Source: Candidatus Colwellbacteria bacterium CG10_big_fil_rev_8_21_14_0_10_41_28
GTDB lineage: Bacteria > Patescibacteriota > Minisyncoccia > UBA6257 > Colwellbacteraceae
DNA length: 64,000 nt
Assembly: GCA_002773755.1 (NCBI GenBank)
Contig: PFAG01000014.1
Coordinates: forward strand, 6,634 to 70,633
Direction of reading: 5' to 3'
Numbering within the stretch: position 1 is the stretch's first letter; every line of letters begins with the position of its first letter. Position numbers and translations under genes: made by a program. Shown piece after piece: positions 2,874 to 54,487 of the stretch. Below the pieces are notes generated by a model. That model made no database searches. It saw only the letters and a program-made list of their open reading frames with translations, and was not told the DNA's origin.

Positions 2874-4268
2874 ATGAGAGTCTTAATTAAAGAGACACCC
2901 GAGCATATCGGAGAGAAAATAGAGCTAAATGGCTGGGTTGATACTAGGAGAGATCATGGCAAGCTCATTTTTATTGACCTTAGAGACAGGAGTGGGTTGG
3001 TCCAGGTTGTCTTCAACGGAAAGAACCAAGAAGCGTATAAAATAGCAGACTCCTTAAGGCCAGAGTGGGTTATTAAATTAGTTGGTGAAGTAAAAGAAAG
3101 ACCGGATGGTATGAAAAACAATGATCTCCCAACAGGTGGAGTGGAGATCTCTGTTGAGAAAATAGAGGTATTAAATGAATCCGAAACCCCTCCTTTCGAC
3201 ATCCATTCAGATGGATTGGATATCAATGAAGCCCAAAGATTAAAGTATCGATACCTAGATCTCAGAAGGCCAAGATTACAAAGAAACATAAAGTTAAGGT
3301 CTGAGCTTATCCAAAAAGCTAGAGAGATTCTTTTTGAAATGGATTTTACTGAGATAGAGACTCCGCTATTGAGTAAGTCTACTCCAGAGGGTTCTCGAGA
3401 TTTTATAGTGCCATCAAGACTATATCCAGGTAAATTCTTTGCTTTACCACAAAGCCCTCAGCAATATAAGCAACTTTTAATGACAGCTGGTTTTGAAAGA
3501 TATTTCCAGATTGCCAGAGCTATCAGAGACGAAGATTTAAGAGCAGATAGGGGGTTTGAGCATACCCAAATAGATATGGAGTTGAGCTTTGTTGACAGGG
3601 ATCAGTTTATGGCTATCGACGAAGAGCTTATGACCAGGGTTTTTGAGGGTCTTGGGTATAAGATCAAAGAAAAGCCATTCCCTGTTGTTACATACGAAGA
3701 GGCTATGGAAAAGCACGGGGCAGATAAATTCGATCTTCGAGGAGATAAGGATAAAGAGGACGGTGTATTGGCCTTTGCATGGGTTGTGGATTTCCCATTC
3801 TTCGAAAAAGATGATGGTGGTGGTTGGACCTTTACACACAACCCTTTCTCAATGCCAAAAGAAGAGTTTTTGGACGATTTCCTTAAAGGAAAGAATATTG
3901 AGAATATATTAACCACCCAATACGATCTTGTCTGCAATGGACTTGAGGTTGGTGGTGGAAGTATTAGGGCTCATAAACCAGAGATCCTTGAGTCAACCTT
4001 CAAGATTATGGGTTATGACAAAGAGACAATAGACGAGCAATTTGGATACATGCTTGAGGCTTTCAAATATGGAGCGCCTCCACATGGAGGAACGGCTCAC
4101 GGAGTTGAGCGTCTTCTAATGGCAGCAACTGGAGAAGAGTACTTGAGAGAAGTGCAGGCTTTTCCACAGTCTGGCACTGGTCAAACATCCGTAATGAATG
4201 CACCATCAGAAATTAGCAAGAAACAGTTGGAAGAATTGGGAATAGAAATTAAAAAGAAAAAGAAATAA
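2874..4268 (+). CDS. aspS: aspartate--tRNA ligase (short form, apparently lacking GAD insertion)
   Basis: N-terminal OB anticodon-binding domain, class II motifs, FALPQSPQQYKQLLM signature; 464 aa. Confidence 0.85.
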   Translation: MRVLIKETPEHIGEKIELNGWVDTRRDHGKLIFIDLRDRSGLVQVVFNGKNQEAYKIADSLRPEWVIKLVGEVKERPDGMKNNDLPTGGVEISVEKIEVLNESETPPFDIHSDGLDINEAQRLKYRYLDLRRPRLQRNIKLRSELIQKAREILFEMDFTEIETPLLSKSTPEGSRDFIVPSRLYPGKFFALPQSPQQYKQLLMTAGFERYFQIARAIRDEDLRADRGFEHTQIDMELSFVDRDQFMAIDEELMTRVFEGLGYKIKEKPFPVVTYEEAMEKHGADKFDLRGDKDKEDGVLAFAWVVDFPFFEKDDGGGWTFTHNPFSMPKEEFLDDFLKGKNIENILTTQYDLVCNGLEVGGGSIRAHKPEILESTFKIMGYDKETIDEQFGYMLEAFKYGAPPHGGTAHGVERLLMAATGEEYLREVQAFPQSGTGQTSVMNAPSEISKKQLEELGIEIKKKKK

Positions 4269-4270
4269 AC

Positions 4271-4873
4271 ATGGCAGATAAAAAAGAAAGAACACTGGTT
4301 GTTATAAAACCAGACGGAGTACAGAGAAGCTTAATAGGGGAGATTGTAAAGCGTTTTGAAAGAACCGGTCTTAAATTAGTTGGAGTTAAGATGTTTGTTC
4401 CAAAGGAAGATTTTGTTGAGGCTCATTATACCCTAGACCCAAACTGGAAAATGAATAATGGCACCAAGGTTATCCAAGCCGCTAAAGATAAGGGAATTAA
4501 ACCAAGAACAGAAGATCCAATTGAACAGGCTGATTTTGTATTGGGAACACTCAAGAAGTATTTAACTTCCGGTCCAGTCATAGCAATGGTCTGGGAAGGA
4601 CTTCACGCAGTCAAGATTGTCAGGAAGATTGTTGGCGGCACAGAACCACTAACATCTGATGTCGGAACAATCAGAGGAGACTTTGTTCTTGATTCATACC
4701 AGAAAGGAGATGAAGACAATAGGTCTGTTAGAAATTTGATCCACGCCTCTGGCTCAACTGAAGAAGCAGATATGGAAATAAAACACTGGTTTGAAGATTT
4801 TGAGCTCGTGAACTACAGATTAGTCCAAGAGGCAATCCTCTACGATGTAAATCTAGATGGAATTTTGGAGTAG
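4271..4873 (+). CDS. ndk: nucleoside diphosphate kinase (with internal insertion)
   Basis: N-terminus ERTLVVIKPDGVQRSLIGEIV..; NLIHASGS active-site region; 200 aa is longer than typical. Confidence 0.8.
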   Translation: MADKKERTLVVIKPDGVQRSLIGEIVKRFERTGLKLVGVKMFVPKEDFVEAHYTLDPNWKMNNGTKVIQAAKDKGIKPRTEDPIEQADFVLGTLKKYLTSGPVIAMVWEGLHAVKIVRKIVGGTEPLTSDVGTIRGDFVLDSYQKGDEDNRSVRNLIHASGSTEEADMEIKHWFEDFELVNYRLVQEAILYDVNLDGILE

Positions 4874-5124
4874 TTTCCACAATCTATTGATAGAATAAAT
4901 AAACTACTATAGATATAAAAATATGGATTTAAGAATAAATGGTCTGTTTAATTTTGTGCTCTTTACCCATCTCTTTACTAGGAGGTTAGTTTTTATCAAT
5001 AGGCAAATCTAAGAAGATAAATCCAAACTAAAGCCGACCTCCGTTCAAAGAAGAGGCCAGTTTTAGTTTGGGGAAATGTCTTCCTCAAGGCAGTACATAT
5101 ACAACCGATAGGGAGGTGAATAAC

Positions 5125-5373
5125 TTGGCGGTCAGAGTCAAAATTAAAAAAGATGGTGTAATGGTTCCCTGTCCAGTAAACGGACAGAAGATGATTCCCT
5201 TCGATAAGAGATGGTCTTCTGGACCAGTCACCATGATCATTATTCAGGGGAAGAAGGGCCGTCTTACGCTCCGAGTGGAACACACCAACACAGGCACCCT
5301 TATGTGTTCTGAAAAAGTACAGATCAACGAAACATACATAATCGGTCTCTGGGCCATCAATAAGAGCAGTTAG
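5125..5373 (+). CDS. hypothetical small protein (GC-rich island, start uncertain TTG/ATG)
   Basis: GGGAGGTG 6 nt before TTG at 5125; stop TAG overlaps SD of next ORF (coupling); no homology recognised. Confidence 0.35.
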   Translation: MAVRVKIKKDGVMVPCPVNGQKMIPFDKRWSSGPVTMIIIQGKKGRLTLRVEHTNTGTLMCSEKVQINETYIIGLWAINKSS

Positions 5374-5383
5374 GAGGGGCAAC

Positions 5384-5653
5384 ATGAGTATCGATGAAAG
5401 GAGTAGTCGAGAGCAGCAACGGTTGTTTCTGCTCGCAACCCACTACCAAAATAGGTATGGATCAGCAGAAATCGCAAAGGCAATCAGAGCCGAACCGGGT
5501 AGCGAAGAATTCACCCATTTCATGCAGCAAGAATTGGGAGTTATCGCCCCAAGAGTGACGAAGGCGGATACTCTCGAGGTTCAGAGACAACTTCGCGAGT
5601 GGAATAATTTTGGTCAGAGATCATTTGAGAAAAAAGAAAAAGAAAGGGAGTGA
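5384..5653 (+). CDS. hypothetical protein, 89 aa
   Basis: Strong SD GGAGGGG 6 nt upstream of ATG; helical hydrophilic product; followed by terminator. Confidence 0.5.
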   Translation: MSIDERSSREQQRLFLLATHYQNRYGSAEIAKAIRAEPGSEEFTHFMQQELGVIAPRVTKADTLEVQRQLREWNNFGQRSFEKKEKERE

Positions 5654-5664
5654 TATCGCTCAAC

Positions 5665-5694
5665 AAGGGGCATCAAGATCTGGTGCCCCTTTTA
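5665..5694 (+). terminator. intrinsic terminator GGGGCA..TGCCCC + TTTT
   Basis: Hairpin AAGGGGCA-TCAAGATCTGG-TGCCCCTT followed by TTTT. Confidence 0.5.
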
Positions 5695-5821
5695 CATTTT
5701 CTGGTATAATAAAAATGTTCCGCTCTTGGTACCGGATCAAATACTTTTTACGGGGATTTCTATATCATTTGGTCCCTTGGGATTAAATTGCGATCTCCCA
5801 CCTGGTTATCGCCGGGTTGCT

Positions 5822-5875
5822 AATGCGCGGAACATAAGAGAACCGCCCTTCGGGGCGGTTTTCTTATGTTTCTAA
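5822..5875. terminator. long near-perfect hairpin (18-bp stem, TTCG loop) downstream of rpmB; likely bidirectional terminator
   Basis: AACATAAGAGAACCGCCC TTCG GGGCGGTTTTCTTATGTT; U-tracts on both sides. Confidence 0.55.
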
Positions 5876-5890
5876 TCCTACTTAACCTAT

Positions 5891-6093: not shown

Positions 6094-6744
6094 ATGGATA
6101 GCATAGTGATTGCAATATTTCAACTAGTGGTTTTGTTATTTTCGGTGATAGTTCACGAAGTTTCTCATGGGTTAGCCGCTCTAAAGTTGGGAGATGATAC
6201 GGCCAAGAGATTAGGGAGATTAACCCTTAATCCAATTCCTCATTTAGATCCATTCGGCTCTTTGATACTTCCAGCTCTACTCTTCTTAACCAGTTCTCCG
6301 TTTATGATCGGTTGGGCAAAACCAGTTCCATACAATCCGGGTAGGCTATATAAAGATTTTAAATATGGTCCGCTTAAGGTTGCCCTAGCTGGACCTGCTT
6401 CGAATCTTATCCTGGCTATCATCTTTGCTATCCCAGCGAGATTACTGGTTGGGGTTTTGGATCCAGTCCTAATTGGATTTATGGGAATAGTTGTATTTAT
6501 CAACGTTCTACTGGCTCTATTTAACCTAGTCCCAATCCCACCTCTAGACGGGTCAAATATATTGACCATTCTTTTACCAGAGAAATACTCGAATATGATT
6601 CAAAGTGTTGGTATCTGGGGAATATTTATAGTTATATTCCTCCTATCTATGTTCTCACGCGTGCTTTTCTCAGGAGTTCTTAACCTTTCGGCCATAATGG
6701 CGGGGGAGGATGTCATCATTCAAGCATTTAGAATCCTCAGTTAG
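6094..6744 (+). CDS. site-2 protease family (peptidase M50) membrane metalloprotease
   Basis: HEVSHG (HExxH) within first TM, multiple TM helices, LDG motif (PIPPLDGS). Confidence 0.6.
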   Translation: MDSIVIAIFQLVVLLFSVIVHEVSHGLAALKLGDDTAKRLGRLTLNPIPHLDPFGSLILPALLFLTSSPFMIGWAKPVPYNPGRLYKDFKYGPLKVALAGPASNLILAIIFAIPARLLVGVLDPVLIGFMGIVVFINVLLALFNLVPIPPLDGSNILTILLPEKYSNMIQSVGIWGIFIVIFLLSMFSRVLFSGVLNLSAIMAGEDVIIQAFRILS

Positions 6745-6745
6745 A

Positions 6746-6775
6746 TTGACACAAATAAAGCTTGTTTGTTATATT
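6746..6775 (+). promoter_or_regulatory. candidate promoter of rpsL operon (TTGACA-18-TATATT) followed by leader hairpin
   Basis: TTGACA at 6746, TATATT at 6770; leader contains CCCGCC..GCGGGGG stem. Confidence 0.4.
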
Positions 6776-6830
6776 TAGCCTCGCTAACGTTAAGTCCCGC
6801 CTATAAAAAGCGGGGGTTAGCTATGTTTAT

Positions 6831-7250
6831 ATGCCAACAATTAATCAACTAATTAAAAAGGGTAGAGATAAGGCTACTAAGAAGAATAAAACTCCTGGCC
6901 TTTCTTTGGGTTTCAATACAAATAAGAATAGACCCATGACATACAACTCTCCATTTAAGAGAGGAGTTTGTCTTAAGGTTTTTACAACCACACCTAAGAA
7001 ACCTAACTCAGCCCTTCGAAAGGTAGCCAGAGTTAGGCTAACAAACGGACAGGAGGTAACTGCATATATCCCAGGAGAGGGGCACAACCTACAGGAGCAC
7101 TCTGTAATTATGCTAAGGGGAGGAAGGGTAAAAGACCTTCCGGGTGTTAGATACACCATTGTAAGAGGTGTTCTTGACTCGTCGGGTGTTGAGGGCAGGA
7201 AACAGAAGAGATCGAGATATGGTGTTAAGAAGCCTAAAGGAGATAAATAA
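6831..7250 (+). CDS. rpsL: 30S ribosomal protein S12
   Basis: [12 protein letters not shown].., [11 protein letters not shown], conserved C-terminus; operon context. Confidence 0.9.
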
Positions 7251-7717
7251 TGAGAAAGAATAGAAATTATAAAAGAGATCATAAACCTGATGCTAAGTAT
7301 GGAAGTGTAACCGCTGCCAGATTTATCAACTACATCATGAAAGATGGGAAGAAAACTATAGCCGAAAAAGTCTTCTATGATGCCCTTGATGAGATAACCA
7401 AGAGAACCAAGCAAGATGGAATGGAAGTCTTTGAAAAGGCTTTAGAAAACGTAACTCCAAAACAGGAAGTTTTCTCAAAGAGAGTTGGTGGTGCAAACTA
7501 CCAAATTCCAAGAGATGTTCGCCCTGAGCGTCAATTCATATTGGCTAGTCGGTGGATATTAACAGCCGCTAGAAGCAAGAAGGGCAAAGCTCTTGCACAA
7601 ATCTTGGCTGACGAACTTCTTGCCGCATACAACAATGAGGGAGATGCAATCAAGAAGAAACAGGATGTTCATAGAATGGCCGAAGCCAACAGAGCTTTCG
7701 CTCACTTTGCAAGATAG
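7250..7717 (+). CDS. rpsG: 30S ribosomal protein S7
   Basis: S7 family sequence; follows rpsL. Confidence 0.9.
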
Positions 7718-9891: not shown

Positions 9892-11082
9892 ATGGCAGAA
9901 AAGTTTAATAGAGAAAAACCACACGTTAACGTTGGTACCATTGGTCATGTAGACCACGGTAAAACAACTTTGACTGCAGCCATCACACATGTCCTTGCAA
10001 AGAAAGGATTGGCCAAGGAGTCTCTCGTAGACGCAATCGACAAAGCTCCTGAAGAGAGAGCTAGAGGAATTACTATTGCTCTAGCACACATGGAGTATGA
10101 GTCAGAAAAGCGCCACTACGCACACATTGATGCTCCTGGTCACGCTGACTACATTAAAAACATGATTACTGGTGCCGCCCAGATGGACGGTGCAATTCTT
10201 GTTGTATCAGCAGCGGATGGACCTATGCCACAGACAAGAGAACACATTATTCTCGCCCGTCAGATTGGAGTTCCATCAATAATCGTATTCCTTAACAAGA
10301 CTGATCAGGTTGATGATCCTGAGCTTATTGATCTAGTTGAGGCAGAAGTCAGAGAGCTTCTAAGCAAATACGAATACCCGGGTGATGATGTCCCTGTAGT
10401 TAGAGGTTCAGCTCTTAAGGCTTTGGAATCAGAATCAATAGATAGTGAAGAGGCTAAGCCAATCTTAGATCTCATCAACTACATGGATGAATACATTCCA
10501 GAACCAGTCAGAGAGACTGATAAGCCATTCCTTATGCCCGTCGAAGACGTATTTACTATCGAGGGTAGGGGAACCGTTGTTACCGGTAGAATTGAAAGAG
10601 GTAGAGTTAAGGTCGGCGAGGAAATTGAGATCGTCGGAATTAAAGATACCCAGAAAACAACTGTTACTGGTGTAGAAATGTTCAACAAACAGCTAGACGA
10701 AGGTATCGCAGGAGATAACGTCGGTGTTCTTCTACGTGGTCTTAAGAAAGAAGACGTAGAGCGCGGACAAGTTCTTGCAGCCTCCGGGTCTGTTACTCCT
10801 CACACCGAATTCGAGGCAGAAGTATATCTTCTATCCAAGGAGGAAGGTGGTAGGCACACTCCAGTATTTCCTGGATATAAGCCACAGTTCTACATCAGAA
10901 CAACTGACGTAACAGGTGAAGTTACCTTGCCAGAAGGCACAGAGATGTCTATGCCAGGTGACACCGTAAACTTTAGTGTAAAGCTAATCCAGCCGATTGC
11001 TCTTGAAGAGAAGCAGAGGTTTGCTATCCGTGAGGGTGGTAAGACTGTAGGAGCTGGTGTTGTAACTAAGGTAATCAAATAA
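9892..11082 (+). CDS. tuf: elongation factor Tu
   Basis: [22 protein letters not shown]; 396 aa. Confidence 0.95.
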
Positions 11083-53944: not shown

Positions 53945-54073
53945 ATGAAACCCAAACTAAAAATAGCCATATTTATAGTGCTCACAACTCTTTTATCCTT
54001 TGCTATTGGATATATCTTGGGCAACGAAGATAGTAGGGCGCCTATTCTAATAGATGTAGAAAAAACAGAATAA
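53945..54073 (+). CDS. possible 42-aa small membrane protein
   Basis: ATG ORF with one TM helix; no SD; weak. Confidence 0.2.
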   Translation: MKPKLKIAIFIVLTTLLSFAIGYILGNEDSRAPILIDVEKTE

Positions 54074-54112
54074 AACCCTTATCATATTCACGGCACATCA
54101 AGAGGAGGAACT

Positions 54113-54487
54113 TTGCAGAGAGAACTAAAGATCCAATACGACAAGAGTCGGGAAATCCTCTCTTACGAGGTTTTCAATTCAAAAAATGGAAGGATCGTCC
54201 GCAAAGAGTCGATCCCAGCCAAACCTCGACAGGCTCTTCGTTTCATCTCGGGACTTCTCTCCAGTGGAGTGATGAACGTAGATGAGAAGATTTCCTTTTA
54301 CGAGAGGGTCATCAGCCTTTCTCGTGGAGAGAAAATCGACGAAGGGGCCAGGGGAGATGTGGAATACTTCTTTCTTGGAGCCCTAACAAGGATCTCTGAG
54401 TCTGGAGGAGTCTTCTCAAACTGCGACATGTCGATGGCTTTGACCTTGAGGAATAAGCTTGAAGCATTGACCACACCTGCTCGGTAA
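54113..54487 (+). CDS. hypothetical protein (124 aa, TTG start) in GC-rich island
   Basis: GAGGAGG immediately upstream of TTG; stop codon lies in stem of 12-bp perfect hairpin. Confidence 0.45.
   Translation: MQRELKIQYDKSREILSYEVFNSKNGRIVRKESIPAKPRQALRFISGLLSSGVMNVDEKISFYERVISLSRGEKIDEGARGDVEYFFLGALTRISESGGVFSNCDMSMALTLRNKLEALTTPAR

Follow-up and report, generated by a model that had tools for sequence, protein, structure and literature searches.

A probable horizontally acquired gene pair in a replaceable slot between ndk and a predicted 6S RNA gene in Colwellbacteria

Introduction

We describe here two small adjacent genes, ORF1 and ORF2 (ORF, open reading frame), found in a 64,000-nucleotide (nt) stretch of DNA from ‘Candidatus Colwellbacteria bacterium CG10_big_fil_rev_8_21_14_0_10_41_28’ (contig PFAG01000014.1, positions 6,634 to 70,633). 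This whole stretch is referred to below as ‘the window’; the ‘CG10_big_fil_rev’ of the record name denotes the Crystal Geyser groundwater series. The two ORFs lie on the plus strand between ndk, which encodes nucleoside diphosphate kinase (NDK), and a predicted gene for 6S RNA. On balance, we think that they form a real, horizontally acquired, lineage-specific bicistronic cassette, which in one Colwellbacteria population fills a replaceable slot with the ndk terminator on one side and the 6S RNA gene on the other. Taken singly, ORF2 is very probably a real gene, and ORF1 is probably one.

As such, the pair adds to the many lineage-specific orphan cassettes found in genomes of the candidate phyla radiation (CPR). 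In a type of genome usually called streamlined, it would illustrate cleanly what foreign DNA looks like: G+C at third codon positions (GC3) is high, and Shine–Dalgarno (SD) sites are strong although the host is SD-poor. Its analysis also corrects the public annotation of the locus. Mapping its boundaries exposed a divergent 6S RNA after ndk across many Parcubacteria, together with the small replaceable slot beside it, and we regard this RNA as a more interesting by-product than the pair itself. Were the pair a toxin–antitoxin (TA) or defense module, it would define new protein families; so far, layout alone points there.

Boundaries of the insert

The left anchor of the slot is ndk (4271–4873, plus strand; PF00334). 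We fetched 160 related loci around NDK homologues and compared the DNA that follows the gene. Across the Parcubacteria, 6S RNA normally starts about 68 nt past ndk: this is the median of the gap from the ndk stop to 6S, which is 250 nt or less in 74 of 88 loci and 837 nt in the window. In the closest relative, L089 (NDK 81% identical), 6S begins 19 nt past ndk and the pair is absent; ndk, a short RNA-like element, tRNA-Pro(GGG) on the minus strand and rpmB, also on the minus strand, follow one another within 500 nt. The original prediction for this locus, which was made from the sequence alone, had named a lack of conservation in related genomes as an outcome that would refute it. This outcome is what we see: no relative of ORF1 or ORF2 is encoded in the 160 fetched loci, L089 included.

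The left flank of the insert is shared with relatives. Positions 4871–5085 align with the ndk 3′ flank of two sister Colwellbacteria, L014 and L010. Within this stretch, 4874–5012 (plus strand) is conserved ndk 3′ flank, outside the insert, aligned with the same two loci and holding ORFs of at most 30 amino acids (aa). The AGGAGG at 4981–4987, which no start codon follows, is part of a small hairpin that is conserved as a motif in relatives. Next comes a larger hairpin (5013–5082, plus strand; arms 5023–5041 and 5053–5071; folding z −2.9), which we read as a degenerate ndk terminator. Its counterpart in L014 and L010 is a canonical intrinsic terminator, AAAGCCGAyCTCC...GGAGGTCGGTTTTTT, with an aligned 3′ arm GAGGyCrGTTTT; in the window, the T tract is interrupted. 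The original prediction had placed an 11-bp perfect hairpin in a 5′ leader of the pair. The hairpin is real, with a perfect run of 10 bp rather than 11, and it belongs to the ndk 3′ flank. Its alignment with the L014 and L010 terminators was also our ground for rejecting it as a cassette-specific regulator or attachment (att) site. The 10-mer of its arm recurs a third time at 53952, within an unrelated small ORF, probably by chance.

With a left flank that is conserved to 5085, and with position 5702 of the 6S promoter as the right border, the variable insert spans about 5085–5695. These roughly 610 nt comprise an SD site, ORF1, a second SD site, ORF2 and a terminator, and nothing else. The spacer between ndk and 6S is expanded, with unrelated cargo, in 14 of the 88 loci, among them the window (4873–5711), L014 and L010. 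The fillings of L014 (800 nt, 6607–7406) and L010 (1064 nt, 4261–5324) have common flanks and different centers; further cargo was noted in L012, L075, L037, L032, L036, L066, L078 and L096. Elsewhere, the slot holds a histidine kinase with a transporter-like membrane protein, and small SD-led ORFs. One cargo ORF, which we take to be 3′–5′ exonuclease-like, has no Pfam hit, and the cargo ORFs tested in relatives belong to no Pfam family. ORF1 and ORF2 are unrelated to the slot cargo ORFs of other lineages, and the cassette DNA has no similarity to the other fetched loci or to the rest of the window. The 837-nt gap, the absence of the pair from L089, the homologous left flank, and the fact that L014 and L010 have only the flanks of their own inserts in common together argue for an insertion. 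Such a pattern marks the spacer as a small replacement hot spot, the site of a replacement-type islet that would be exchanged via conserved flanks. To our knowledge, the ndk–ssrS slot is not a described hot spot.

The arrangement recalls phage morons and flexible genomic islets, which are likewise compact, have a terminator of their own and deviant composition, and sit between conserved neighbors where sister genomes carry other cargo. Unlike these, the pair does not lie in a prophage, and an integrase, att repeat or promoter of its own was not recognized. The window contains the competence gene comEC (769–2043). In the same genome, ahead of the first position of the window, genes next to efp (587–3333 of L001/L002) encode a TraG/VirD4-like coupling ATPase (T4SS-DNA_transf, TrwB) and a DUF8128 protein, and may be related to DNA uptake or transfer. 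In the coordinates of those loci, where ORF2 lies at 10001, this region extends from about 6.7 kb (gene end, 3333) to 9.4 kb (start, 587) upstream of ORF2.

Foreign composition in an SD-poor host

GC3 is 0.52 in ORF1 and 0.46 in ORF2, against 0.333 ± 0.031 in host genes. The G+C content of 5050–5699 is 0.457, the 99.6th percentile of the 650-nt stretches of the window, and is exceeded only around the RNase P RNA; the GC-rich island of the original prediction is thus borne out. Core genes of the host essentially lack SD sites (e.g. the genes at 2874, 4271, 6831, 7723, 9892 and 11093). Among 18 core genes with secure starts (including aspS, ndk, rpsL, rpsG, fusA, tuf, rpsJ and rplC), 17 have A/T-rich upstream sequences and no SD, the exception being rpsG (AAGGAG). 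Over 67 host ORFs, the distribution of SD matches is close to that at random positions, and the strong SD sites of the window are found at high-GC3 ORFs. The GC3 values, the strong SD sites in an SD-poor host and the extreme G+C content argue for a foreign origin. High GC3 together with strong SD sites further points to an unsampled donor of higher G+C in which SD sites are in use; this could be a phage or another bacterium.

A second orphan-looking ORF in the window has similar properties. It lies at 54113–54487 (plus strand; 124 aa, TTG start), with the highest GC3 of the window (0.54) and the SD site GAGGAGG. It belongs to no Pfam family, is unrelated to ORF1 and ORF2, and might likewise have been acquired. 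Directly 5′ of it lies an ORF for a small membrane protein (about 53946–54074).

Anatomy and expression of the gene pair

ORF1 (5125–5373, plus strand) starts with TTG and encodes a beta-rich protein of 82 aa; an alternative in-frame TTG at 5068 would give 101 aa. The JGI, ENA and Logan gene callers all call it. ORF2 (5384–5653, plus strand) starts with ATG and encodes 89 aa with a predicted three-helix, hydrophilic structure; it is identical to the GenBank entry PIR98436.1 (COT88_01260). The ORF1 product is basic (pI 10.0) and that of ORF2 near neutral and very hydrophilic (pI 6.75), and sequence prediction finds no membrane segment or signal peptide in either.

The SD site of ORF1, SD1 (5111–5119, plus strand; GGGAGGTGA), agrees with the SD consensus over 8 nt (AAGGAGGTGAT); agreement over at least 7 nt is seen at about 0.3% of random positions. 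The ORF1 stop codon, TAG (5371–5373), overlaps the SD site of ORF2 (5371–5379, plus strand; TAGGAGGGG). This second site, SD2, is AGGAGG (5372–5377), and the ORF2 ATG follows 6 nt further on. The ORFs are 10 nt apart, with one terminator, located 3′ of ORF2. According to the predicted folding, SD2 and the start codon of ORF2 pair in part with 5349–5361, within the last codons of ORF1. ORF2 is probably coupled to ORF1, given that the ORF1 stop lies inside SD2 and that SD2 is partly paired with the end of ORF1. The intrinsic terminator of the cassette (5665–5701, plus strand) begins 12 nt past the ORF2 stop and consists of an 11-pair stem (5665–5691) and a T-rich tail. The SD and start region of ORF2 (AGGGGCAACATGA, 5375–5387) is similar to the 5′ arm of this terminator (5666–5678) and, hence, complementary at 9 of 10 positions to its 3′ arm (5681–5690); the complementarity could reflect a long-range alternative pairing, or chance.

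In these respects the original prediction stands: both ORFs, the stop codon within the SD site of ORF2, and the terminator 3′ of the pair are where it had put them, and layout and predicted SD2 pairing support its translationally coupled two-gene operon, with co-transcription inferred. It went astray in placing the pair upstream of rpmB, which is convergent, on the minus strand, and separated from the pair by the 6S RNA gene.

Expression might proceed as follows. Transcription would reach the pair by read-through from ndk, over the hairpin with its lost T tract, or from a weak promoter that escaped recognition, and would end at the cassette's own terminator (5665–5701). Ribosomes would load at SD1, and synthesis of ORF2 would be tied to translation of ORF1. 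The outcome would be roughly equimolar amounts of a basic, beta-rich protein of 9 kDa and a hydrophilic three-helix protein of 10.5 kDa, both cytoplasmic and probably acting together as a complex.

Coding evidence

In dinucleotide shuffles of 4990–5700, two same-strand ORFs of at least 80 aa arise in 2.4% of cases. The SD matches found here are 8 and 6 nt long and properly spaced; matches of at least 6 nt occur at fewer than 2% of random positions. The rarity of both features argues that the arrangement is not due to chance. In a periodic Markov coding model trained on 52 host ORFs, the ORF2 frame is clearly the best of the six, and ORF2 has the pattern GC1 > GC2 (G+C at first codon positions above that at second). 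A sense-versus-antisense codon likelihood, trained on 445 long ORFs of related loci and correct for 95–100% of held-out chunks, favors the plus strand with all four training sets, by +26 to +50 bits for ORF2 and by +5 to +8 bits for ORF1.

There is no excess RNA folding in the coding stretch, 5125–5655 (z = −1.4, within the host mRNA range), for which comparison values are +1.5 for ndk, −1.5 for fusA, −2.9 for tuf and −3.5 for RNase P RNA. Nor is there any Rfam match to this stretch, and on these two grounds a large structured RNA in place of the genes was rejected. The pair occurs in seven contigs, all from one population and 99.9–100% identical in nucleotide sequence, with no single-nucleotide variant in the ORFs and one in the terminator (5669).

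Homology and structure of the two proteins

The original prediction had recognized no similarity to known families, and wider searches agree. Pfam, NCBIfam, PHROGs and PADLOC, searched with E-values up to 10, gave no match beyond noise for either protein. Among 5.8 billion protein clusters, the only homologues of ORF1 and ORF2 were self-hits from one Colwellbacteria population. PDB sequence searches came back empty, and neither phages and plasmids (by tblastn) nor viral contigs contained a relative of the pair. The single-sequence structure model of ORF2 is confident (three helices; predicted local distance difference test score, pLDDT, 79), and fold searches with it returned generic helical matches only, nothing more informative than a generic three-helix bundle.

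ORF1 has one faint likeness. A full HMMER search of 1.84 billion representatives gave 20 weak hits, all to giant surface proteins that carry SprB repeats and belong to the type IX secretion system (T9SS), with E-values inflated by the summing of several repeat matches per protein. The motif common to ORF1 and the matching SprB units is P[FY]xxxWSxGxT..I....G.Y.V.V, and residues 24–65 of ORF1 fit the longer skeleton, PYxYxWSxGxT..I....G.Y.V.V.D..GC....V, of the SprB repeat (PF13573), an immunoglobulin-like beta-sandwich of Bacteroidota T9SS proteins. Against a profile of 313 SprB repeat units, ORF1 scores 13.0 bits (P about 3 × 10−6, reached by none of 20,000 shuffles), a value to be read in the knowledge that many families were implicitly tried; the Pfam SprB model, PF13573, does not hit it. 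Unlike the SprB surface proteins, ORF1, which stems from a different phylum, consists of one unit only and lacks both a signal peptide and a T9SS sorting domain. These traces hint that ORF1 may be a beta-sandwich.

Similar in kind is a comparison with the epsilon subunit of ATP synthase, which combines an N-terminal beta-sandwich with a C-terminal helical hairpin, much as ORF1 is weakly beta-sandwich-like and ORF2 helical. ORF1 scores 13–14 bits against the epsilon beta-sandwich (E 0.04–0.09; cut-offs 27 and 67). We rejected a split epsilon subunit: the scores are at noise level, fusing ORF1 to ORF2 gains nothing, and no atp genes lie nearby.

Weighing the explanations

Several points count against a real, acquired cassette. 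Both ORFs score only at the 2nd–3rd percentile of host gene chunks in the Markov model, low values that we attribute to their deviant composition, and the ORF1 frame ties with the codon-aligned antisense frame (−0.021 bits/nt versus −0.014 antisense). The NCBI annotation omits ORF1 and has instead an antisense ORF of 129 aa, COT88_01255 (4996–5385, minus strand). The single-sequence structure model of ORF1 is poor (pLDDT 52, four strands), and the pair has no homologue in which purifying selection could show. A consensus scan recognized no promoter upstream of the pair, and no mobility gene, flanking repeat or convincing target duplication marks the insert. Use of SD sites by host ribosomes is presumed only, the 3′ end of 16S rRNA with its anti-SD lying outside the window. 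Finally, what we say of function below is a guess drawn from layout, charge and location alone. Some of these points can be turned into rival accounts. It is most unlikely that the GenBank model is right, with COT88_01255 the real gene, ORF1 its shadow, and two divergent genes in place of an operon. The antisense ORF is the longest of the region, it is annotated, and its Markov score is as good as that of ORF1; but it has no SD site, the sequence 5′ of its start is not A/T-rich, unlike that of host genes, and it occupies the codon-aligned antisense frame, the typical source of shadow ORFs. The codon likelihood prefers the plus strand to it with every training set. It would begin 2 nt inside ORF2 and cross the ndk terminator hairpin, no homologue of it was found either, and its product, rich in Leu, Phe, Arg, Cys and His, resembles antisense translation. 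COT88_01255 is probably a shadow of ORF1 and a mis-annotation. We also find it very improbable that no protein is encoded and that the stretch is a G+C-rich non-coding spacer or structured RNA with fortuitous ORFs. The only other comparably G+C-rich stretch in the window is RNase P RNA, a structured RNA adjoins the pair, the coding scores are low by host standards, and there is no conservation to prove coding. Set against this are the folding of 5125–5655, far from that of RNase P RNA, the silence of Rfam, the GC1 > GC2 pattern and strong sense-strand codon signal of ORF2, and the joint improbability of two well-spaced strong SD sites, an SD–stop overlap and a nearby terminator.

If the genes are real, the question becomes what they are. 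The original prediction had likened the pair to TA or phage-defense accessory modules, and the likeness of layout holds: as in a type II TA module, there are two small adjacent genes, a stop codon inside an SD site, and a single terminator, with co-transcription inferred. Membership of such a family finds no support. Neither protein matches a recognized TA superfamily (RelE/ParE, MazF/CcdB, VapC, HicA, HipA or Doc; helix-turn-helix, ribbon-helix-helix, AbrB or Phd folds) or, at E-values up to 10, any PADLOC family. Nor was a defense-island location seen: the neighbors are aspS, ndk, 6S RNA, rpmB, an M50-like peptidase gene and the rpsL–fusA–tuf ribosomal cluster. Known TA families spread widely, and a mobile TA or defense family would be expected to be patchy but wide, so that the lack of homologues leaves TA or defense membership unsupported. 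A toxin-first type II module, in which ORF1 would be the toxin and ORF2 would neutralize it and repress the operon, is an unlikely explanation. It would account for two small, tightly coupled genes with a terminator of their own, for their accessory status in a variable slot, and for a basic first product and a less basic second, both predicted to be cytoplasmic, much as in HigBA, HicAB or MqsRA, where the second product is likewise the more acidic. What speaks against such a module is that the pair has no sequence or fold likeness to any toxin or antitoxin family and no recognizable DNA-binding domain, that homologues are lacking among 5.8 billion protein clusters and 1.8 billion representatives, and that no toxin, antitoxin or defense model of Pfam, NCBIfam, PADLOC or PHROGs matched it. 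We hold it equally improbable that the pair is a decaying remnant, without present function, of a mobile element, prophage or larger gene, in which ORF1, for example, would be a stranded SprB-type unit. The 20 HMMER hits, all to SprB-type proteins with a shared motif, and the unit-profile score, unmatched in shuffles, favor this idea, as do the missing promoter and the lack of remaining mobility genes. Yet debris would not be expected to retain two intact ORFs, near-ideal SD sites and a clean terminator, as this locus does; the SprB signal becomes borderline once the implicitly tested families are allowed for, with the Pfam model silent; and ORF1 lacks the signal peptide that SprB-type surface proteins need.

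We return to an acquired cassette as the best account of the locus. As to role, our low-confidence guess is an accessory or selfish module of phage or other mobile origin rather than a housekeeping function; examples would be an addiction pair in toxin-first order or an accessory pair derived from a phage. A bolder version, that the stretch between the ndk terminator and 6S is a dedicated Colwellbacteria hot spot for conflict cassettes, and the pair the first sampled member of a CPR-specific two-protein TA or anti-phage system, with new folds, read-through from ndk and SD-dependent translation in a genome otherwise poor in SD sites, is in our judgment decidedly unlikely.

The neighboring, predicted 6S RNA

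The right anchor of the slot is an RNA at 5711–5868 (plus strand) which, judged by its covariance model and its Rfam 6S hallmarks, is a short, divergent 6S RNA (ssrS) missed by the Rfam cut-off. It is preceded by an extended −10 element (5702–5710, plus strand; TGGTATAAT), conserved in L014. Positions 5711–5868 align with 7407–7566 of L014 and with the RNA-like element of L089 (1050–1232), sharing the extended −10 box and a covarying closing stem. We built a covariance model from these three sequences; it places the element on the ndk strand, directly 3′ of the gene, in some 90 of the 160 loci. In 50 aligned members, 93% of cells are paired, versus about 45% in slid controls, a comparison that somewhat favors pairing because the alignment was fitted to the model. 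Across these 50, both partners vary in 44 of 48 pairs; GGG/CCC never varies, and ACCCACCU is retained, in agreement with the Rfam consensus.

The likeness to 6S RNA (SsrS, RF00013) extends to the closing stem, an A/U-rich 5′ strand of the bubble, an internal stem flanked by GGGAG...CACCCACCU, a small 3′ hairpin, and a promoter and terminator of its own. It differs from RF00013 in being shorter, about 125–135 nt without the terminator, and in its Rfam scores of 13–29 bits. RF00013 is the best Rfam family for both L098 (28.7 bits) and L114 (23.6 bits, E 0.0033), the match covering model positions 39–148, the central part; the window scores 12.9, and all three fall below the gathering score of 46.4. 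A literature search found no paper on 6S RNA in CPR bacteria.

Beyond the 6S RNA lies rpmB (ribosomal protein L28; 5891–6115, minus strand, likely true start ATG 6082), convergent with the cassette. In several relatives, tRNA-Pro(GGG) is encoded on the minus strand just downstream of rpmB (L089 1232–1303, L023 8120–8191, L097 6182–6254 and L149 5817–5889); it is missing in the window, where only 22 nt (5869–5890) separate the 6S terminator from rpmB. That terminator is a bidirectional hairpin of 18 bp (5831–5870, plus and minus strands) with T-rich runs on both sides, and appears to end both 6S RNA (plus) and rpmB (minus). Formation of the 6S closing stem competes, at its 3′ strand, with the outer 5 nt of this hairpin.

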